A DNA stretch of 26,172 nucleotides from Candidatus Woesearchaeota archaeon (GTDB taxonomy: Archaea > Nanobdellota > Nanobdellia > Pacearchaeales > GW2011-AR1): assembly GCA_964603295.1 (NCBI GenBank), contig CAZRUG010000011.1:1-26172 (forward strand), given 5' to 3'. Positions 9,974 to 22,882 of the stretch are shown piece after piece. Positions within the stretch are counted from its first letter, which is position 1; every line of letters starts with the position of its first letter. The notes beneath the pieces are model-generated. The model ran no database searches, was not told the origin of the DNA, and worked only from the letters and a program-made list of their open reading frames with translations. The translations under genes were made by a program, and so were the position numbers.

Positions 9974-9992
9974 CTAATAAATTAAATACAAA

Positions 9993-10090
9993 GGCTTCGT
10001 AGCTCAACTCCCAAGCCCAATTGGGTTATTAAGTTACGCAAGCTAATAAAATCAATTGAACATTGCTCGGCCTGGTTTTATACCAGTCTT
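9993..10090 (+). pseudogene. Degenerate tRNA-Lys 5' fragment A, interrupted
   Basis: GGCTTCGTAGCTCAA matches 14 of 15 nt of the start of the intact tRNA at 10192. After a ~57-nt insert, GCTCGGCCTGGTTTTATACCAGTCTT is a decayed match to the D-arm and anticodon-stem region. No 3' D-stem strand, T-arm or 3' acceptor strand is present. Confidence 0.6.
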
Positions 10091-10112
10091 CGCTTGATTG
10101 ATTAATTAAAAT

Positions 10113-10137
10113 GCTTCGTAGCTCAGCCTGGTTAGAG
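10113..10137 (+). pseudogene. tRNA-Lys 5' fragment B (tRNA positions 2 to ~24)
   Basis: GCTTCGTAGCTCAGCCTGGTTAGAG is identical over 25 nt to 10193-10217 and then diverges completely. An AT-rich TTAATTAAAA lies immediately upstream. Confidence 0.65.
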
Positions 10138-10191
10138 TGAAAACATCTCAAGAAATTTTCCTGCAAACCATTCTGAACTACCTAGTACTAA

Positions 10192-10286
10192 GGCTTCGTA
10201 GCTCAGCCTGGTTAGAGCACCAGACTCTTAAGTAAGAAATTACATGAGGAATCTGGGTGTCGCGGGTTCAAATCCCGTCGAGGCCA
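10192..10286 (+). tRNA. tRNA-Lys (anticodon CUU) with a ~20-nt intron at the canonical 37/38 position
   Basis: Hand-folded cloverleaf. Acceptor GGCTTCG/CGAGGCC (one G-U pair), D-stem GCTC/GAGC, anticodon stem CCAGA/TCTGG, loop CTCTTAA. Intron approx. 10231-10250. T-arm GCGGG-TTCAAAT-CCCGT, discriminator A. CCA is not encoded. Confidence 0.85.
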
Positions 10287-11805: not shown

Positions 11806-12186
11806 ATGGCAGATATATTTGACAACAAAATTTTATGCAGTAAATGCAACAAAGAAATGCAAAAAGCAAAGATTGCAAAAAAAGGATTTTTGTTTCGGGC
11901 TGTAATTTGTTCGCAATGTAATCAAAGAATAATTCATCCTGCTGATGAGCAAGAATACTTAAGATTTAGGGATTTGCAAAATAAAGAGTTTAAAGTTAAA
12001 ATGCGTTTAGTGGGAAATAGTTATGCTGTTTCAATTCCAAGAGAGATAATTAATTTTATGCAAGAGCAGGAAAAGATTTTTAATGACATGGTGCGATTGT
12101 GTTTTGAGGATTTTGGCAAATTAAGTTTAAATTTTGAAACCCAAAAACAATTAAATAAACAAAACTCAAAGAAAAAAGATGACTAA
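11806..12186 (+). CDS. Zinc-ribbon plus SpoVT/AbrB (MazE-like swapped-hairpin) domain protein
   Basis: CSKCN...CSQCN ribbon. [22 protein letters not shown] then matches the GNSxAVxIP signature of MazE/AbrB domains. Its stop overlaps the Cdc48 start by 8 nt (ATGACTAA). Confidence 0.7.
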
Positions 12187-14488
12187 AGACTTTCAATTAA
12201 AAGTTGTAGAAGCACAGCAAGATGATGCATATAAAGGCATTGCAAGAATTGATTCTGAAATAATGAGAGAACTTGGTGTTCGAAGAGGAGATATAATTAC
12301 AATTAAAGGAAATAGATTGACTGTTGCAATTGTTGATAGGGCTTATCCGGCAGATGTTGGAGAAGGAATTATTCGAATTGATGGTATTTTAAGAAAAAAT
12401 GCAAAAGCTGGTTTAGGAGAAATGGTTGCTGTTTCAAAATCAGAGGCTAAAGAAGCGAAAAAAATTGTAATTGCTCCTGCTCAAAAAGGGTTGGTAGTAC
12501 AAGGTGATCCAGAAAGTTTGAAAAAAGGTTTATTAGGAAGACCATTGGTTAAGGGAGATGTTTTTGTTTTGGGAGGTGTACAAAGAAGAAGAGATTTATT
12601 TTCAGAAATGGGTCTTGGAGATATGTTTGGGGAAGAAATGGGAAATATTTTTGGTAATCTTGGAGGAGGAATTGCACAGATTAAATTTGCTGTTGTAAGT
12701 TCTAGTCCTGGAGGAGCAATAATGGTAACTGAAAATACAGAAGTTTCATTAAATCCAAAAGCTGTTGAAACTATTGAAGAAAATATTCCTACAATTAATT
12801 ATGAGGATATTGGTGGTTTAGAAGAAGAAATTAAGAAAATTAGAGAGATGGTTGAGATTCCAATTAAACATCCTGAAATTTTTCAAAAACTTGGTGTAGA
12901 ACCTCCTAAGGGAGTTTTGTTGCACGGACCTCCTGGAACAGGTAAAACACTTTTAGCAGAAGCTGTTGCAAATGAATCAGATGCTCATTTTATTTTATTA
13001 AATGGTCCTGAAATTATGTCAAAATTTTATGGGGAATCTGAGAAAAAGATTAGAGATATTTTTGAAGAAGCTGAAAAAAATGCACCTGCAATTATTTTTA
13101 TAGACGAGATTGATGCAATTACTCCTAAGAGAGAGGATGTTTCTGGAGAAGTTGAAAGAAGAGTTGTTTCACAGTTATTAACAATGATGGATGGTTTAAA
13201 GGCAAGAGGAAAAGTTATTGTTATTGGTGCAACAAATCGTATTGGTGGAATTGATCCTGCACTTAGAAGACCTGGTCGTTTTGATAGAGAAATTGAGGTT
13301 GGTGTTCCAAGTAAATCAGGTAGATTGCAAATTTTAAAGATTCATAGTCGAGGAATGCCTTTAGCAAAAGATGTTGATTTAGAAAAACTTGCTGGATTAA
13401 CACATGGTTTTGTTGGTGCTGATTTAGAATCATTAACTAAAGAGTCTGCAATGAATGTTTTAAGGAAAATGTTGCCTAAACTTCAATTAGATATTGAGGA
13501 ACCAATTTCTCCAGAGATTTTAGAAAAGCTTTTAGTTAATCACTCTGATTTTACAGATGCTTTAAAGATTGTGCGTCCATCTGCAATGCGAGAGGTTTTA
13601 GTTGAAACTCCAAATGTTGAATGGAAAGATGTTGGGGGGTTGGATAGTGTTAAACAAGAATTGCAAGAAGCTGTTGAATGGCCAATGAAACATCCAGAAA
13701 GTTTTAAGAGAATGGGAATTCGGCCTTCTCGAGGGCTCTTACTTTATGGTCCTCCTGGAACAGGTAAAACTCTTTTAGCTAAAGCTGTTGCAAAAGAATC
13801 TGAAGCAAATTTTATTCAAGTTAAAGGACCTTCATTGTTAAGTATGTGGGTTGGTAAATCTGAAGAAGGTGTAAGAAAGATTTTTGAAAGAGCAAGACAG
13901 GTTTCTCCATGTATTGTTTTCTTTGATGAAATTGATTCATTAGCAGGTAAGCGAGGAGGAGAAGGAGGAACTAAAGTTACTGAAAGAGTCTTAAATCAAA
14001 TGCTTGCTGAAATGGATGGATTAGAAGATTTAAATGAAGTTTTAGTTATTGCTGCAACAAATAGGCCAGATATGTTGGATACTGCGATTTTAAGGCCGGG
14101 TAGATTTGATAGAATTTTATTAGTTAATGCTCCTGAAGAAGAAGGAAGAATTAGTATTTTGAAAATTCATACAAAAGAAATGCCAATTGGCGACGGAAAA
14201 AAGTTATTTACTGAAAAAGAAAAATTAAAATTCTTAAATGAAATTGCAAAACAAACTCATGGCTATACTGGTGCTGATTTGGAGTCTTTAGTAAGGGAAG
14301 CTGCAATGTTGGCATTAAGAGAATCAATTAAAGCAAAACAAGTAACTAAAAAACATTTTGAAGAAGCATTGAAAAAGATTAAACCAAGTATTAGTGAAAA
14401 TACAATTAAGATTTATAAAAAAATTGAGGACAATTATCTTAAATCTGCTAAAGCTGCAGTGCCAACTGAGGCTGGTTATTTTGGATAG
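12179..14488 (+). CDS. cdc48: Cdc48/VAT/p97-type AAA+ ATPase, paralog 1
   Basis: VAT-N-like N-domain. Two AAA modules, each with GPPGTGKT, a DEID/DEID-like Walker B and RPGRFDR. Pore loops KFYG and MWVG. Ends in GYFG. Confidence 0.95.
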
Positions 14489-14537: not shown

Positions 14538-14903
14538 ATGGGATTTTTTGATAATGATCCATTTGAAGATATAATTAAAGAATTTTTTAGTGGAAGGTCT
14601 GGAAGTAATGTTAGTTCACGAACTTTTAGAAATAATATTGAAGAATCAAGTAATTTTGTCCAAAGTGATAAAAATGTTTATTTTGTTTTAGATTTATCTG
14701 GAAAACAAAGTGTTAATGTTGAGGTTAAAGATGAATTAGTTAGAAATGAATATGGTGAACAAGTTCATACTGGAAAAAAAGCCCTTGTAATTAAAAGTTC
14801 AGAGGGAGATGTTTTACAATATGCTTTGCCAAAAAAAATTAAATCAAAGAATTTCCATTGGAATTTTAAGAATGGAATTCTTGAAGTGAAGTTTAAAAAA
14901 TGA
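14538..14903 (+). CDS. Small heat-shock protein (Hsp20/alpha-crystallin-like)
   Basis: I prefer the ATG at 14538, with GGAG 7 nt upstream, over the track's GTG at 14520. NVYFVLDLSG...VNVEVKD...YALPKKIKSKNF...NGILEVKFKK follows the alpha-crystallin domain pattern. 4-nt ATGA overlap with the next gene. Confidence 0.6.
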   Translation: MGFFDNDPFEDIIKEFFSGRSGSNVSSRTFRNNIEESSNFVQSDKNVYFVLDLSGKQSVNVEVKDELVRNEYGEQVHTGKKALVIKSSEGDVLQYALPKKIKSKNFHWNFKNGILEVKFKK

Positions 14904-17167
14904 AAGAAAAAATTTTATTAGAAGTTGTTGAAGCACATAGAAGTTATGTTGATAAAAATGTTGTAACAATTGCAAATTCAGATATGGAGGGTTTTGATTT
15001 GTCTTCTGGAGATATTGTTAAAATTGGTTCTGAAAAAGAATTGTATCTTAGAGTAATTAGGGTTGATGATATTTATTCTGGAAAAATTGGAATTAATGGT
15101 GAAACAAGATCTGTTTTAGGTGTTTCTGTAGGAGAGAAAATTTCTGTTCAGAAAGTTGATAAGGTTCCTGTTTTAAAATCAGTTACTCTTTCTATTTTGC
15201 CTCATGAAAGTTTTAGTACAGAACAATTAAAACAATATAATGCGCAATTAAAATCATATGGAAAGTTTAAGGAATTGTTAATGAATTCGCCCTTGTCTAT
15301 TGGACAAAAAATTACTGTTCCCACAAATGTTGGCAAATTAACTTATTCTGTTGTTGGTGTCATGCCTAAGAAAAATCCAGTTGGTATTGTTGATTTTAAT
15401 ACAAATATTGATGTTTCAGATGATGTTGGACAAGGTTCTGGTGTGAATGTTTATTATGAAGATATTGGTGGTTTAGAAGAAGAAATTGAAAAAATTAGAG
15501 AAATGGTTGAGTTTCCAATGAAGCACCCTGATTTATTTCAAAGACTAGGGATTAGTGCTCCAAAAGGTGTTTTGTTAACTGGTCCTCCTGGAACAGGTAA
15601 AACTCTTTTAGCCAAAGCTGTTGCAACAGAGACAGATGCAAAATTTATTTCAATTGCTGGTCCTGAAATTATGTCAAAATATCATGGTGGTTCTGAGGAG
15701 AATTTAAGAAGTAAATTTGAAGAAGCTGAAAAAAATGCACCTGCAATTGTTTTTATTGATGAAATTGATGCTATTGCTCCAAAAAGAGGAGAAAGCCATG
15801 ACCAAGCTGAAAAAAGAGTTGTAACTCAATTATTAACTTTAATGGATGGTTTAAAATCCAGGGGACAAGTTGTTGTTATGGCTGCAACTAATAGACCTGA
15901 TGATTTAGATGAAGCATTGAGAAGACCTGGTCGTTTTGATAGAGAAATTAAAATTAATCCTCCTTCTGAAAAAGGTAGAAAAGAGATTTTACAAATTCAT
16001 ACACGAAGCATGCCTTTAGAAGATAGAGATAATTTAATTAAAGATATTGCAAAAAATACAATTGGTTATACTGGTGCTGATTTAGAAGTTTTATGTAAGG
16101 AAGCTGCTTTGCGTTCTGTTAAACCTTTTTATAAATCATTAGTTAAATTTGGAGAAGAAGCTTCTGAGGAAGACATTGAAAAAAGAGAGGAAGAAAAGAA
16201 AAAATTAATTAGTAATATTAAGGTTACAAAAGAACATTTTGTTGAGGCAATGAGGCAAGTTGAGCCTTCTGCAATGAGAGAAGTTTTAATTAATAAACCA
16301 AATGTTGAATGGAAAGATGTTGGTGGTTTAGATAAAGCTAAAGAAAAACTTAGGGAATTAGTTGAATTACCTTTGTTAAGGCCTGATTTATATTCTATGG
16401 CTGGAATTAAACCTTCAAAAGGTGTTTTGTTAACTGGTCCTCCTGGAACAGGTAAAACTCTTTTAGCTAAAGCTGTTGCAACAGAATCTAATGCTAATTT
16501 TATTTCTGTTAAAGGTCCTGAATTAATTTCAAAATGGGTTGGGGAGTCAGAAAAACATGTTAGAGAAATTTTCAAAAAAGCAAGACAAGTTGCACCTACA
16601 ATTATTTTCTTTGATGAATTTGATTCAATTTCTAAATTAAGGGGATCTTCAATGAGTGATTCTACTGAAAGAATTGTTAATCAATTATTAACTGAACTTG
16701 ATGGTGTTGAAGAACTTGAAAAAGTTATGATTGTTGCAGCAACAAATAGAAAAGATTTGATTGACCCTGCTTTGTTAAGACCCGGTAGAATTGATTCAAT
16801 TGTTGAATTAGAAATTCCTGATAAAATAACAAGAGAAGAAATTTTTAAGGTTCATACAAAAAATATGCCTTTAGCAAAAGATGTTAGGTTATCTGATTAT
16901 ATTGGAAAAACAGAAGGTTGGACAGGTGCTGATATAGAGGCTGTTGCAAGAAATGCAGGAATACATGCTATTAAAAGAATTTACTTAAAGAAAAATAATC
17001 AAAATCTTGAAATTACAAAACAAGATTTTAATTCTGCATTACAAGAAGTTGCTAAATCTTCTGAAAGAGAAATTAAGGAAGATAAGCCTGTTATTAAAAA
17101 AGAAAAATGTGGAGAAAAAATTAGTAAAAAGAAAAATACTTCACAAAAGAATTCTAAAAAGAAATAG
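14900..17167 (+). CDS. Cdc48/VAT-type AAA+ ATPase, paralog 2, with a Lys-rich C-terminal tail
   Basis: N-domain plus two AAA modules (GPPGTGKT x2, DEID/DEFD, RPGRFDR/RPGRIDS). Pore loops KYHG and KWVG. The C-terminus is KISKKKNTSQKNSKKK. Confidence 0.95.
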   Translation: MKEKILLEVVEAHRSYVDKNVVTIANSDMEGFDLSSGDIVKIGSEKELYLRVIRVDDIYSGKIGINGETRSVLGVSVGEKISVQKVDKVPVLKSVTLSILPHESFSTEQLKQYNAQLKSYGKFKELLMNSPLSIGQKITVPTNVGKLTYSVVGVMPKKNPVGIVDFNTNIDVSDDVGQGSGVNVYYEDIGGLEEEIEKIREMVEFPMKHPDLFQRLGISAPKGVLLTGPPGTGKTLLAKAVATETDAKFISIAGPEIMSKYHGGSEENLRSKFEEAEKNAPAIVFIDEIDAIAPKRGESHDQAEKRVVTQLLTLMDGLKSRGQVVVMAATNRPDDLDEALRRPGRFDREIKINPPSEKGRKEILQIHTRSMPLEDRDNLIKDIAKNTIGYTGADLEVLCKEAALRSVKPFYKSLVKFGEEASEEDIEKREEEKKKLISNIKVTKEHFVEAMRQVEPSAMREVLINKPNVEWKDVGGLDKAKEKLRELVELPLLRPDLYSMAGIKPSKGVLLTGPPGTGKTLLAKAVATESNANFISVKGPELISKWVGESEKHVREIFKKARQVAPTIIFFDEFDSISKLRGSSMSDSTERIVNQLLTELDGVEELEKVMIVAATNRKDLIDPALLRPGRIDSIVELEIPDKITREEIFKVHTKNMPLAKDVRLSDYIGKTEGWTGADIEAVARNAGIHAIKRIYLKKNNQNLEITKQDFNSALQEVAKSSEREIKEDKPVIKKEKCGEKISKKKNTSQKNSKKK

Positions 17168-18698: not shown

Positions 18699-19166
18699 AT
18701 GTCTGCTTTAAGATATTTGTCTTGGCCTAAGAAAAAGGTTCTTAATTCTGGTAAAACTTGGGTTGCTTCAACTTATGGTGCTGCAAAATATGGTCTTTTT
18801 GTCGGGTTTCCTGCTCTTTTTTTAGCAGAACAGTGTTCTTCATGGGATATAAGGTATTTTGCTGGAGAGATTTATGAAATGCTTTTGGGATTAGACGATC
18901 TTGCACAAAATCATCCCTTTATTACTTTGACTGCAATTGGAACATTTGGAGCTTTGCGTTGGAGAAGAAAAATTGAAAAATTGAAAAAAGAGGAAGAAAG
19001 ATTGGAGAATTTGGTAAGGCCATATGAAGAAGAATTAGAAACTTTAAGACCTCTTATTGCGCAAAATAGAGAACTTGTTGATTTAGTTAGAGAGTATAAA
19101 TCACTTACTCAAACACTTAAAGGTATTAATAATGATTATTCAGAACAAGTTTCAAAAGAAGATTAA
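18699..19166 (+). CDS. Hypothetical membrane protein with a C-terminal coiled coil
   Basis: I prefer the internal ATG at 18699, which has TTTATATA 21 nt upstream, because the track's start at 18603 overlaps the map gene. Two hydrophobic segments are followed by a charged heptad-like region. Confidence 0.5.
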   Translation: MSALRYLSWPKKKVLNSGKTWVASTYGAAKYGLFVGFPALFLAEQCSSWDIRYFAGEIYEMLLGLDDLAQNHPFITLTAIGTFGALRWRRKIEKLKKEEERLENLVRPYEEELETLRPLIAQNRELVDLVREYKSLTQTLKGINNDYSEQVSKED

Positions 19167-19639
19167 ATTTTTTCTTTTAATCTTCTGTTTTTTGGAACAA
19201 AGTTTGTTACTTTGTTTTCTGATGATTTGCCTGTTCCAATAAAATCATTTTTGTATTTTAAAATTATAAATCCTCTAAAGTTTGTTTCAATATTTAGTTC
19301 TTTTCCATGTAAGAATTCTTGAGCTTGTTTTTGATTTAATTCAAATATATTTTTTGTTATTTGATTTTGAAGTAAGTGTATTGCATCTATGCTCAATCTA
19401 ACTTCTTCATTTTGTAGTTTTGCAAAATAAATTCCTGCTCTTTCAACAGGAGCAATTTCTTGAAGATTTTTTATTTGAGTTTCTGAAAATTCTCCTTGAT
19501 AAAGAAAAATTCTTTCAGCACCTCTTTTCATTAAAACACCTTTAACTTCTGAGATTCCAAATTGTTTTTTTATTCTCTCAAATATATCTTGCTGTTCTTT
19601 TTTTGAAATTATTTTTAGTCTGTTTTCTTGGGGTTTCAT
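19163..19639 (-). CDS. Nip7-like / PUA-domain RNA-binding protein (likely NOP2 partner)
   Basis: 158 aa. The domain layout and the C-terminal GFIILKYKNDFIGTGKSS...NFVPKNRRL resemble Nip7/PUA modules. It lies directly downstream of a NOP2/Sun methyltransferase. Confidence 0.45.
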   Translation of the reverse strand: MKPQENRLKIISKKEQQDIFERIKKQFGISEVKGVLMKRGAERIFLYQGEFSETQIKNLQEIAPVERAGIYFAKLQNEEVRLSIDAIHLLQNQITKNIFELNQKQAQEFLHGKELNIETNFRGFIILKYKNDFIGTGKSSENKVTNFVPKNRRLKEKI

Positions 19640-19833
19640 CTTAACCTCCTAAACTTAGCAATGAAAAATCCCTTAACTCGGGACCCTTCATTGAGATTTA
19701 ATCTTTTGTAAATTTTCATCTTAACCTCCTAAACTTAGCAATGAAAAATCCCTTAACTCGGGACCCTTCATTGAGATTTAATCTTTTGTAAATTTTCATC
19801 TTAACCTCCTAAACTTAGCAATGAAAAATCCCT
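19637..19833. repeat. Perfect 80-bp tandem repeat, about 2.46 copies
   Basis: Units at 19637-19716 and 19717-19796 are identical. A third partial unit (19797-19833) is the 3' end of the NOP2/Sun gene. Period is exactly 80 nt. Confidence 0.95.
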
Positions 19834-20770
19834 CGGTATTATTATCTTGAGGATAAACTCTGCATGAGAATTTGACTTCTTCAAGATATTCTTTGTCCTG
19901 CCATTTTGTAATTCCCTGTCTTGGTTTAATTGGTAAGTTTATTTTTTGAATTTCTATTTTGTCTTTAAATTTTTCCAGCATATAATTAACAATTGCTTCA
20001 TTTTCTTCTGGTGCATGAGTGCAAGTTGAATAAATCATTTCACCATTTTCCTTTAATAATTCAAATGCTGTTTCTGCAAGTTGTTTTTGTATTTTTGGAA
20101 GTTTTTTAACTGTATTTATGTTCCACATTGAATATGTTTTTGGAGAACTTCTCAATGTTCCTTCTCCTGAACAAGGTGCATCTACAAGTATTTTGTCAAA
20201 TTTGAAATCTTGTTTTTTTAATCTATAACATAAAGCAATTCCATCTTTTTTTGTTATTATTGTGTTTGTTACTCCGCATCTTTCTAAGTTTGAGGCAAGA
20301 ATTCTTAATCTACCCATTGAAACTTCGTTGGCAATTATGTTTCCTGTGTTTTGCATTTTAGCGGCTGCCTGTGTTGTTTTACTTCCTGGTGCAGCACATA
20401 AATCTAGGACAGATTCTTCTGGTTTAATGTCAAGAGCAATAATCGGCAACATACTGGAAAGTTCTTGAATATAATAATAACCTAAAATATGTTCAAGTGC
20501 TCTTCCCAAATCACCTGGCATTAAATCTCCTTCAATAATCATAATTTCTGGATAAGTTTTCCAAGGTTGTTTTACAATCCAATTTTTTTCTTCAAGTCTT
20601 TTTTTCAAATTCTCTGGAGAAATCTTTAATGTGTTACAACGAATTGAACGGACTGGTTGCTCTTTTAAAATTTCTAAATATGAATTAAAATCTTTGTCTT
20701 CAACTAAAAGCTGTTTCATTCTTTCAATAAATTCTTGTTTTGGTTCAGGCATTTTTTGCAATGTTTTCAT
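19796..20770 (-). CDS. NOL1/NOP2/Sun family RNA (cytosine-C5) methyltransferase
   Basis: SAM motif DLCAAPGSKT. Catalytic motifs DAPCSGEGT (motif IV) and YSTCT (motif VI). Confidence 0.9.
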   Translation of the reverse strand: MKTLQKMPEPKQEFIERMKQLLVEDKDFNSYLEILKEQPVRSIRCNTLKISPENLKKRLEEKNWIVKQPWKTYPEIMIIEGDLMPGDLGRALEHILGYYYIQELSSMLPIIALDIKPEESVLDLCAAPGSKTTQAAAKMQNTGNIIANEVSMGRLRILASNLERCGVTNTIITKKDGIALCYRLKKQDFKFDKILVDAPCSGEGTLRSSPKTYSMWNINTVKKLPKIQKQLAETAFELLKENGEMIYSTCTHAPEENEAIVNYMLEKFKDKIEIQKINLPIKPRQGITKWQDKEYLEEVKFSCRVYPQDNNTEGFFIAKFRRLR

Positions 20771-21533: not shown

Positions 21534-21710
21534 AGTTTTAATTTTTCTTTCAGTGTGGGGGGGGTGGAAGCGACGACCAAAAAATTAGAGAGAAAAGCCT
21601 GCCTTTTTGTTTCTTTTTTTCCTAAAAAAGAAAATGAGGGGTTTTTATTTTGGTTGTTTTTCTAAAAGAAGAACATCGATATTTATAAAAGTTGAATTAT
21701 TAGAAAGATT

Positions 21711-22028
21711 ATGGTAGAAAAGGAAGTTCAATTAACTCCAGAACAGGCGAGGCAAGTTCAAAATATAGCAGGAGCAATATTTCTTTTTGTTGGAATATAT
21801 TATTTTATTAAAGGAAATTTTGATTTATTCAATTCAGCAATTTTAATTATAATTGGGTTTGGAGTAAGTAAGGATGCAAGAAGTTTAGTTATTTTTGGAT
21901 TAAAATGGACAATAGCAAAAATTCTAAAAAAGCCAACTCCAACATATGATTTTTCTCATGCAAAGATAGAACAGCATGGAAAGCATAATATCATTAACAA
22001 TGGGGGAACAATTAATATTAAAAATTAA
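21711..22028 (+). CDS. Small membrane protein (2 predicted TM), unknown function
   Basis: 105-aa ORF with two hydrophobic stretches. TATA-like TTTATAAAA lies about 22 nt upstream of the ATG. Confidence 0.5.
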   Translation: MVEKEVQLTPEQARQVQNIAGAIFLFVGIYYFIKGNFDLFNSAILIIIGFGVSKDARSLVIFGLKWTIAKILKKPTPTYDFSHAKIEQHGKHNIINNGGTINIKN

Positions 22029-22029
22029 A

Positions 22030-22548
22030 ATGGTAGGAAAACAATCTAAAACTCCGATAAGAAAAAAGAAAAATCTTTTCATAGGGGTTGGAATGCGAAT
22101 GGATTTTACAAAAGAAGATTATAAAAAATTTGAAAAAATCTTGCAAAAATATGCAAAAACTAATAAATGGAAGTTGGAAAAAGAAAAAGTAGGAAAGGAA
22201 GGATATTCTATAATGATTACTTCAAAATCAACTTCGGCAGAAGAAGTATTGAATTTTATTAAAAAGATAAAATCACTATTTGGAGAAATTCAAAAAGAAT
22301 GGGGTGGTGCTCGAGAAGTTTATCCTGACGATTATACAAATATCAAATATTACGATTTGGGAGGAGATGAAGGAAATTTATTATTGGGAATAAATCGTTT
22401 CTCTGAAATGATGATGATAAATATATTATCTAAAAATGCAGTTAAATTAAATAAAGAAGACCCTGAAATTGCACAAGAAATTTTTGGAGATTATATGGTT
22501 GATGGAAACAAATTGCTAAATGTCCTGGTCGGTTTTGAGAAATCTTAA
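22030..22548 (+). CDS. Hypothetical soluble protein
   Basis: I prefer the ATG at 22030, 2 nt after the previous stop, over the overlapping start at 21976. No motif recognised. Confidence 0.45.
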   Translation: MVGKQSKTPIRKKKNLFIGVGMRMDFTKEDYKKFEKILQKYAKTNKWKLEKEKVGKEGYSIMITSKSTSAEEVLNFIKKIKSLFGEIQKEWGGAREVYPDDYTNIKYYDLGGDEGNLLLGINRFSEMMMINILSKNAVKLNKEDPEIAQEIFGDYMVDGNKLLNVLVGFEKS

Positions 22549-22595
22549 AGTATTTTTTCAAAAATTAAAAATTTATTTCGGAGGTAATTTTTAAT

Positions 22596-22772
22596 ATGAC
22601 AATAGATATTGGAACACAAATATTTTTAGTGCTAATTTTTGCTATTATGACTGGTCTGTGTAAAAAATCAAATCTAGATTGGGGCGTTAAATTTTTTGGG
22701 GGGGGAACTGCGATTCTATTTATTGTATTTGCAACAATAGATGTATTAGATGCGGTAAATTTAATAAAATAA
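22596..22772 (+). CDS. Small (58 aa) two-TM membrane protein; not in the ORF track
   Basis: Hand translation: MTIDIGTQIFLVLIFAIMTGLCKKSNLDWGVKFFGGGTAILFIVFATIDVLDAVNLIK. GGAGGT lies 10 nt upstream of the ATG. The ORF contains a G8 tract. Confidence 0.4.
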   Translation: MTIDIGTQIFLVLIFAIMTGLCKKSNLDWGVKFFGGGTAILFIVFATIDVLDAVNLIK

Positions 22773-22882
22773 TTTAGACGAAGCCGACAAATTGTCCAAA
22801 GGACTAAGAGCCTCTCAAAGTAAATGAAAAATTTGAATGTAACGAAGTGAAATATTTTATCCTTTTTTATGTATGATTTATC

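Follow-up and report, generated by a model that had tools for sequence, protein, structure and literature searches.

We analysed a 26,172-nt stretch of DNA (hereafter the window) from a Candidatus Woesearchaeota archaeon (assembly GCA_964603295.1, contig CAZRUG010000011.1), in which a perfect 80-bp tandem repeat lies at the junction of two genes on the minus strand, one for an RsmB/F-type m5C RNA methyltransferase and one for a stand-alone PUA-like domain. The host is an AT-rich DPANN archaeon, Pacearchaeota/Woesearchaeota-like, with 30% GC in the window. The two genes form a split RsmF-type operon, and the repeat is real and probably a recent, lineage-specific duplication at its ATGA stop/start junction, retained since the translational coupling of the two halves was preserved. 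As such it belongs to known kinds, i.e. a tandem duplication at a termination-reinitiation-coupled junction; the hairpin formed by the unit and the split-gene context are new. The repeat looks like a recent tolerated structural mutation and not like a conserved regulatory device.

Tandem Repeats Finder (TRF) reported the array with a period of 80, 2.5 copies, 100% matches, 0 indels, and a score of 400. All other TRF matches in the window stayed at or below a period of 24 and a score of 68, the array alone exceeding a period of 24, and a second repeat search returned the same three in-register copies of the 80-bp unit. Read on the minus strand, the array is an alternation of blocks A and B with no differences between copies (coordinates of all features are given in Table 1). 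Block A (AGGGATTTTTCATTGCTAAGTTTAGGAGGTTAAGATGAAA) holds the final 37 nt of the methyltransferase gene including its TGA, an AGGAGGT motif, and the ATGA overlap with an ATGAAA start. Block B (ATTTACAAAAGATTAAATCTCAATGAAGGGTCCCGAGTTA) contributes 40 nt without an in-frame stop. In place of a single overlap, the junction therefore carries three successive ATGA overlaps (19796-19799, 19716-19719, and 19636-19639) linked by two identical 27-codon bridging open reading frames (ORFs). A preliminary description of this DNA had reported the 80-bp repeat together with its chain of ATGA overlaps and a pair of identical 27-codon ORFs, all of which were borne out by TRF and the ORF listing. Its view of the unit as a mosaic also held: A is identical to the real gene end, and B is unrelated to the real downstream start.

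The genes on either side had been named NOP2 and Nip7, labels that mislead for annotation, since domain matches identify a split RsmF-type methyltransferase (PF01189 and PF17125 upstream; PF13636 downstream). The upstream ORF matched Pfam PF01189 (3.2e-51) and PF17125 (1.2e-13), passed the cutoff of the NCBIfam model TIGR00446 (285.8 bits, cutoff 210), and spans positions 7-310 of the 480 positions of the RsmF model, i.e. the N-terminal two thirds with the N-terminal and catalytic domains. Both the RsmB/F catalytic domain and the RsmF N-terminal domain are thus found on this ORF. The PUA-like domain, which an RsmF-type enzyme has on the same polypeptide, is encoded here by a separate ORF in a different frame, joined to the first by an ATGA overlap. 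This downstream ORF had PF13636 (Methyltranf_PUA, 9e-11) as its sole Pfam match and the RsmF C-terminus as its sole NCBIfam match below E = 1e-3, aligning to positions 330-468 of 480 (the C-terminal third) of the RsmF model; the Nip7 family was not found in the Pfam scan at E <= 0.01. Because positions 7-310 and 330-468 of one model were matched by the two ORFs, respectively, these are the halves of a split RsmF-like gene, with the repeat at the fission point. None of the NCBIfam equivalog cutoffs, whether for RsmF, RsmB, or the archaeal tRNA C49 methyltransferase, was reached, and no match to the PUA protein was found among PDB sequences.

The E. coli counterpart, RsmF (YebU) of the RsmB/F family, methylates C1407 of 16S rRNA. 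Its N-terminal and catalytic region corresponds to the upstream ORF and its PUA-like region to the downstream ORF; unlike in E. coli, the protein is divided here between two genes (~320 aa and ~155 aa in relatives). In some sources, homologues carry the label tRNA C49 methyltransferase. Homologues of ~320 aa number in the thousands (Pacearchaeota, Woesearchaeota, Nanoarchaeota) and all end in ...NNTEGFF[IL]AKFRR[IV]K, and about 160 stand-alone PUA homologues of ~155 aa were found; the best non-self homologue is 75% identical. The split of the RsmF-like gene is thus old and has been kept across relatives in these three groups. Exact-protein look-ups of both junction genes found no further contig.

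Gene pairs coupled by termination and reinitiation offer a frame for this arrangement. In such pairs the last 15 nt of the upstream gene are enough for coupling, an untranslated spacer of about 20 nt nearly abolishes it, and overlaps are enriched among genes for subunits of heteromeric complexes (PMC10666635). The present junction resembles the coupled overlapping pairs described by Huber et al. (2019, PMC6728339; 2023, PMC10666635) in that (i) the genes are co-directional and share a 4-nt ATGA overlap, one of the two overlap types (-4 or -1) of such pairs; (ii) an SD-like (Shine-Dalgarno-like) motif lies in the 3' end of the upstream gene; (iii) the partners are parts of one enzyme, which fits the enrichment for heteromeric complexes (PMC10666635); and (iv) the overlap is conserved in many relatives. 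It differs from them in having three overlaps that arose by tandem duplication, across which coupling is predicted.

Because an untranslated spacer of about 20 nt nearly abolishes coupling, an insertion of 80 or 160 nt at the junction would uncouple the halves unless it were translated from overlap to overlap. A relay of this kind would be possible through the units, since the period of the units equals 3x27-1 and B is free of in-frame stops. A ribosome ending at the methyltransferase TGA would reinitiate on the overlapping ATG, translate the 27-codon bridging ORF, terminate at the next ATGA, and repeat these steps until the PUA gene is reached. Bridging would thereby restore the coupling that a 160-nt untranslated spacer would abolish. 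The array would persist as a nearly neutral change, since expression of the PUA half would stay unbroken, and the two halves would probably remain co-translated.

The preliminary description had also assigned to each start its own Shine-Dalgarno sequence. As a statement on function this is not supported: the AGGAGG motif consists of conserved Phe-Arg-Arg codons of the methyltransferase C-terminus, and SD-like motifs occur at 3 of the 23 window ORFs. Among these long ORFs, 12 begin with ATGA, many of them with ATGAAA. These counts suggest a genome in which initiation may be mostly SD-independent or leaderless and stop/start overlaps are frequent.

An independent assembly bears on the reality of the array. 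In its 90% protein cluster, the PUA protein is joined by one other member, which comes from the Logan assembly of run SRR11308339. The contig concerned (L026; 3,239 nt, aligned to window 19687-16452) begins with 30 nt (AGGGTCCCGAGTTAAGGGATTTTTCATTGC) that comprise the B 3' end, the hairpin loop, and the A 5' part, identical to the window and directly upstream of the PUA gene. Its nt 31-51, the rest of A, read AAAATTTAGGATGAAATCAAAATG, where the window has TAAGTTTAGGAGG and TTAAGATG separated by a 3-nt gap (5 substitutions and a 3-nt indel). This allele, a2* as opposed to a2 in the window, still terminates in ATGA in the same frame, encoding GFFIAKFRMKSK followed by the stop; that frame and overlap are kept is mildly suggestive. 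Three further linked substitutions (19618, 19577, and 19575) fall in PUA codons 8-22. The variable patch (~86 nt) takes in the second part of A3 along with the initial 65 nt of the PUA gene; over its other 3,123 nt, L026 matches the window at 100%. From the same run, a contig of 1,202 nt (L027) is 100% identical to window 21607-22808. It was the only one recovered on the methyltransferase side and ends short of the gene; three further contigs (L028-L030) belong to other organisms.

The B/hairpin/A junction is thus present in an independent assembly and is not an artefact of the window contig. A pure assembly artefact, which the preliminary description had allowed for, is unlikely, as L026 carries the B 3' end, the hairpin, and an A-like copy directly upstream of the PUA gene. 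Its suggestion of a hotspot of variation gained support: an otherwise 100% identical independent assembly differs only in the edge patch. Clustering of this kind marks either a patch of recombination or conversion or the co-existence of alleles. Logan contigs are built on a de Bruijn graph with k=31, each 31-mer being distinct (PMC12424806). Since L026 starts exactly 30 nt (k-1) before the first differing base, the 30-mer at its start must have at least two continuations, which implies that B-A occurs in two or more contexts within one genome, or as two alleles in the population.

The exact copy number is a separate matter. Given a real insertion of B, it is distinctly unlikely that the 2.5-copy array is misstated, be it by collapse of a longer array, inflation of an A-B-A structure, or merging of the a2 and a2* strain paths. 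Such a distortion would agree with the 100% identity of the units and with the origin of the contig, which is metagenome-assembled and whose own proteins were found on a single contig of 26,266 nt. The run SRR11308339 holds the same genome with the other edge allele, and its k=31 graph branches inside the unit; therefore at least two variants co-exist, or the unit is repeated, in this run. That same branch point also speaks against the distortion, as two continuations after B-a1 are what at least two B copies or two alleles would give. Moreover, the a2-to-PUA and the B-to-A junctions share only ~7 nt with alternative paths, so that neither can be created by a k-mer chimera. For 1.5 copies to grow to 2.5, k would have to be below 40, a case that multi-k assemblers resolve; 1.5 copies would be resolved at any k > 40, and inflation of a 1.5-copy structure is unlikely. 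Collapse is favoured by our own reasoning that 200 nt is the minimal path for k between 122 and 201. The 2.5 copies are for this reason best treated as a lower bound, and an annotation should note that the copy number of the contig is possibly one.

Intragenic or intergenic variable-number tandem repeats (VNTRs), which arise by slipped-strand mispairing or unequal recombination, offer a further comparison. Like these, the array has at least two head-to-tail copies (2.5, 100% identical, hence perfectly identical units), its heterogeneity is confined to the edge in near-clonal genomes, and it has hairpin-forming potential. With respect to a copy number differing between strains, L026 is interrupted within the unit, at a k=31 branch, and has a variant last copy. 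Unlike in VNTR-type repeats, a gene 3' end and orphan DNA are joined in the unit as a mosaic, so that a prior complex event is needed. Under the preferred reading of a recent tolerated duplication, this would have been a single event giving A-B-A, which may have been a template switch that brought in filler DNA at the junction or an illegitimate exchange with a foreign allele. The A copies would then have slipped or recombined unequally, possibly helped by the hairpin, to yield A-B-A-B-A or more.

The junction was compared across about 25 related loci (L001-L025) from ~16 distinct lineages. Almost everywhere the PUA gene lies downstream of the methyltransferase gene on the same strand. The lineages fall into four with a direct ATGA overlap, six with an unbroken -4 overlap chain through interposed genes, one with a -20 overlap, and five that are uncoupled; overlap at the junction is thus conserved in relatives, and the ancestral state is an ATGA junction. 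Loci L001-L022 show no tandem repeat of period >= 20 at the junction and nothing resembling B. A 28-nt stretch (the B 3' end and the first 4 nt of A) had no exact match in three public collections (genome_contigs, metagenome_contigs, and viral_contigs). The 80-bp repeat is lineage-specific on account of these two absences. Relatives in which the junction is a simple ATGA and the repeat has left no trace speak against its having a conserved function.

The interposed genes are themselves diverse. In DPANN relatives, the fission point takes up (i) a SAM-methyltransferase gene together with a GNAT gene and a third gene; (ii) a cupin/nucleotidyltransferase; (iii) a gene for a VTT-domain protein; (iv) a 97-aa Zn-ribbon-like ORF; (v) a 69-aa ORF; and, in some lineages, a non-coding spacer. 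The RsmF-like fission point is thus a plastic site in these relatives, at which the ATGA chain usually stays unbroken. In L001-L022, interposed genes have no flanking duplications and no duplicated methyltransferase 3' end next to them, and a cassette insertion with target duplication was rejected for lack of such flanking duplications. In the closest relative, L023, whose genome is otherwise AT-rich, the 110-nt spacer (L023 3132-3241) includes a GC-rich stretch that is self-complementary (GGGCGGGTCTTCGCCAAAGGCGAAC...GCGGGG) and could be a structured RNA or a terminator.

The source of block B was sought by several comparisons. Local alignment against the 300-nt flanks (p = 0.55 and 0.72, the latter for the 300 nt downstream) and against the whole window (p = 0.38) gave no significant similarity. 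Derivation of B from methyltransferase sequence upstream of A was rejected on the alignment to that flank, and an origin as inverted copy of A was rejected as well (p ~ 0.3; b1 against the reverse complement of a2, p ~ 1.0). The preliminary description had read B as a diverged copy of the 5' end of the downstream gene. The peptide encoded by B, MKIY-K-R-L-N-L-N-E-G, does fit the family N-terminal motif LKILNxxEK in its modal register at K, L, N, N, and E. A position-specific scoring matrix (PSSM) of 117 family N-termini nevertheless scored it at p = 0.16-0.26 against four null sets, and together with the downstream alignment (p = 0.72) this leaves the proposal unsupported. B could conceivably be a decayed 12-codon stub of a PUA gene 5' end. 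Positions 5-18 of B resemble the 14 nt preceding the PUA start in the closest relative, at the end of the L023 spacer, with marginal significance (p = 0.054).

These comparisons bear on a further alternative, according to which the array is a scar of recombination or cargo turnover. In this case B would be the remnant of an interposed element or the 5' stub of a foreign PUA allele, left when a foreign methyltransferase-PUA segment recombined illegitimately upstream of the resident methyltransferase 3' end. We consider this unlikely; it concerns the origin of B and is compatible with the preferred explanation. Junctions holding zero to three unrelated genes or a non-coding spacer across relatives are what a site of cargo turnover would show, although the relatives with interposed genes lack a duplicated methyltransferase 3' end. 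The a2* allele, with GFFIAKFRMKSK and the stop plus three linked single-nucleotide polymorphisms in the PUA 5' end, resembles a patch imported from a diverged allele. The fit of the B peptide to LKILNxxEK and the likeness to the nucleotides before the PUA start in L023 would agree with a foreign stub, but neither reaches significance (PSSM p = 0.16-0.26; p = 0.054), and a scar alone leaves the hairpin and the second perfect unit unexplained.

The boundary between B and the following A has a further property. A 14-nt segment in the 3' part of B (CAATGAAGGGTCCC) pairs with the first 14 nt of the next A (GGGATTTTTCATTG), and the predicted hairpin has 14 bp including three G.U pairs, a 7-nt loop, and a folding energy of -18.3 kcal/mol (z = -4.6; 0 of 200 shuffles as stable). 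The opposite strand folds more weakly (-11.8 kcal/mol), and the hairpin is predicted to form as DNA too. When A was kept constant and B was exchanged for random genomic 40-mers, only 1.3-1.7% folded equally stably. Taken as a plain inverted repeat, the arms match at 11 of 14 positions, which is not significant; what is unusual is the fold energy alone, in which G.U pairs are counted. An Rfam scan of 19500-19950 on both strands gave no match at E <= 1. Dispersed copies of B or the hairpin were found neither in the window, nor in loci L001-L022, nor (with the 28-nt query) in the genome, metagenome, or viral collections. A CRISPR-like or mobile-element reading was rejected, since the 'spacers' do not differ from one another, dispersed copies are lacking, and 40 nt is an implausible length for a 'target duplication'.

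Intercistronic hairpin repeats of the repetitive extragenic palindrome or bacterial interspersed mosaic element (REP/BIME) type offer another parallel. As with these, two cistrons of one operon have repeats of a stable stem-loop between them, which in principle could influence mRNA stability or relative cistron expression. Unlike REP/BIME-type repeats, the array has no dispersed copies in the window or the three public collections, the 3' arm of its stem is coding sequence of the upstream gene, and its units are open frames and not extragenic.

From the hairpin and the relay one could construct a functional, copy-number-variable translational attenuator, in which each unit adds a termination-reinitiation step and a hairpin, tuning the methyltransferase:PUA ratio, and slippage generates heterogeneity; an attenuator or ratchet was among the roles suggested in the preliminary description. 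We regard this as highly doubtful. The ATGA relay is unbroken in both alleles, a2* retaining the frame despite five substitutions and a 3-nt indel; the mRNA-strand hairpin is the more stable one (-18.3 vs -11.8 kcal/mol) owing to its three G.U pairs and is unusual for a random spacer (p ~ 0.015). Heterogeneity is restricted to the array edge in otherwise identical genomes, yet no copy-number series was observed. Overlaps are enriched in heteromeric-complex subunits (PMC10666635), but the halves of this enzyme should be needed at about 1:1, so that attenuating one of them has no obvious benefit. Most relatives retain an unbroken overlap chain from the methyltransferase to the PUA gene; several manage without coupling, however, and the repeat, the hairpin unit, and B-like sequence occur in none of the ~25 related loci. 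Bridging, finally, is expected by chance at 9-32%. Very improbable is the specific proposal of a slippage-prone 'relay', in which the number of units, each a bridging micro-ORF with an mRNA-strand-specific hairpin, would set the share of ribosomes passing from the methyltransferase half to the PUA half, and allelic and copy-number heterogeneity in the population would tune the stoichiometry of the split enzyme.

Several observations weigh against a recent duplication tolerated for its preserved coupling. An unbroken bridge results in 32% of cases when random genomic 40-mers stand in for B, and in 9% with random spacers of 20-100 nt. Coupling is not obligatory, as five distinct relatives are uncoupled, including the closest, L023. 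No source of B was found, its sequence having no significant similarity to the flanks, the reverse complement of A, the relatives, or any collection. The three consecutive G.U pairs of the hairpin are unlike the product of a simple fold-back copy. By our reasoning, 200 nt is also the shortest array (40 + 80j) that would be output at k = 122-201 for a longer one. Since unbroken bridges are expected by chance at 9-32%, the bridging property explains tolerance of the array and proves neither selection nor design.

Table 1. Coordinates of the array, its blocks and hairpins, the adjoining genes, and the variable patch in the window, and junction types at related loci (L numbers)
Feature	Position or loci	Strand	Basis
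Tandem array A1-B1-A2-B2-A3, five 40-nt blocks	19634..19833	(-)	TRF, repeat search, direct reading
Block A1	19794-19833	(-)	direct reading
Block B1	19754-19793	(-)	direct reading
Block A2	19714-19753	(-)	direct reading
Block B2	19674-19713	(-)	direct reading
Block A3	19634-19673	(-)	direct reading
Micro-ORF a, 27 codons, MKIYKRLNLNEGSRVKGFFIAKFRRLR; start overlaps methyltransferase stop, stop overlaps micro-ORF b start	19716..19799	(-)	ORF listing
Micro-ORF b, identical to micro-ORF a; stop overlaps PUA gene start	19636..19719	(-)	ORF listing
Predicted hairpin 1, B1/A2 boundary: CAAUGAAGGGUCCC-GAGUUAA-GGGAUUUUUCAUUG	19739..19773	(-)	RNA fold
Predicted hairpin 2, B2/A3 boundary, same sequence as hairpin 1	19659..19693	(-)	RNA fold; 3' arm and loop also at L026 start
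RsmB/F-type m5C RNA methyltransferase gene, 324 aa, ends GFFIAKFRRLR; last 37 nt in A1	19796..20770	(-)	Pfam, NCBIfam
Stand-alone PUA-like domain gene, 158 aa, MKPQENRLKIIS...; ATG overlaps TGA in A3	19163..19639	(-)	Pfam, RsmF model
Variable patch, all 11 window/L026 differences (8 substitutions and a 3-nt indel)	19575..19657	(-)	alignment
Direct ATGA overlap junction	L002/9, L003/11, L008, L014		
1-3 unrelated interposed genes, unbroken -4 overlap chain	L005/20, L010/13, L012, L019, L021, L025 (L024 nearly)		
Uncoupled junction	L001/6, L004/15, L017, L018, L023 (closest relative, 110-nt non-coding, partly GC-rich spacer)		

Other parts of the window were also found to contain duplications. 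At 9987-10286 (+), a tRNA 5' segment (GCTTCGTAGCTCA...) occurs in three copies starting at 9987, 10106, and 10186. Those at 10106 and 10186 are 96% identical over 28 nt and spaced by exactly 80 nt, and the third copy forms the 5' end of a tRNA with an intron (10192-10286; Rfam 57.7 bits; anticodon unnamed by ARAGORN). Like the junction array, they are partial duplications of a gene end in the A-B-A style, with orphan filler. Two ORFs of 769 and 755 aa (12179-14488 and 14900-17167, +) share internal DNA repeats of 60-80% identity; with a 127-aa ORF between them, they look like paralogues with two copies of the repeat segment each. A CDC48-type AAA ATPase (CDC48_N, CDC48_2, and two AAA domains) is encoded near that cluster in the relative L025. 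A 190-aa ORF (21976-22548) has ~90% identical DNA in three other assemblies (L028-L030; window 22057-22578), adjoining a phage-type integrase in L028 and L029 and set in a gene context that differs from the window; this region may be a small mobile module.

Under the preferred explanation, the repeat would make a small but instructive point on the evolution of overlapping-gene operons; it opens no long-standing question. The comparative picture, a plastic fission point that takes up genes, spacers, and repeats, is arguably of more interest than the repeat itself. If the preferred explanation is true, the junction would be a clean natural example of a tolerated structural mutation at a stop/start overlap: the unit brings its own overlap and open frame, so that the coupling of a split enzyme would survive a 160-nt insertion.

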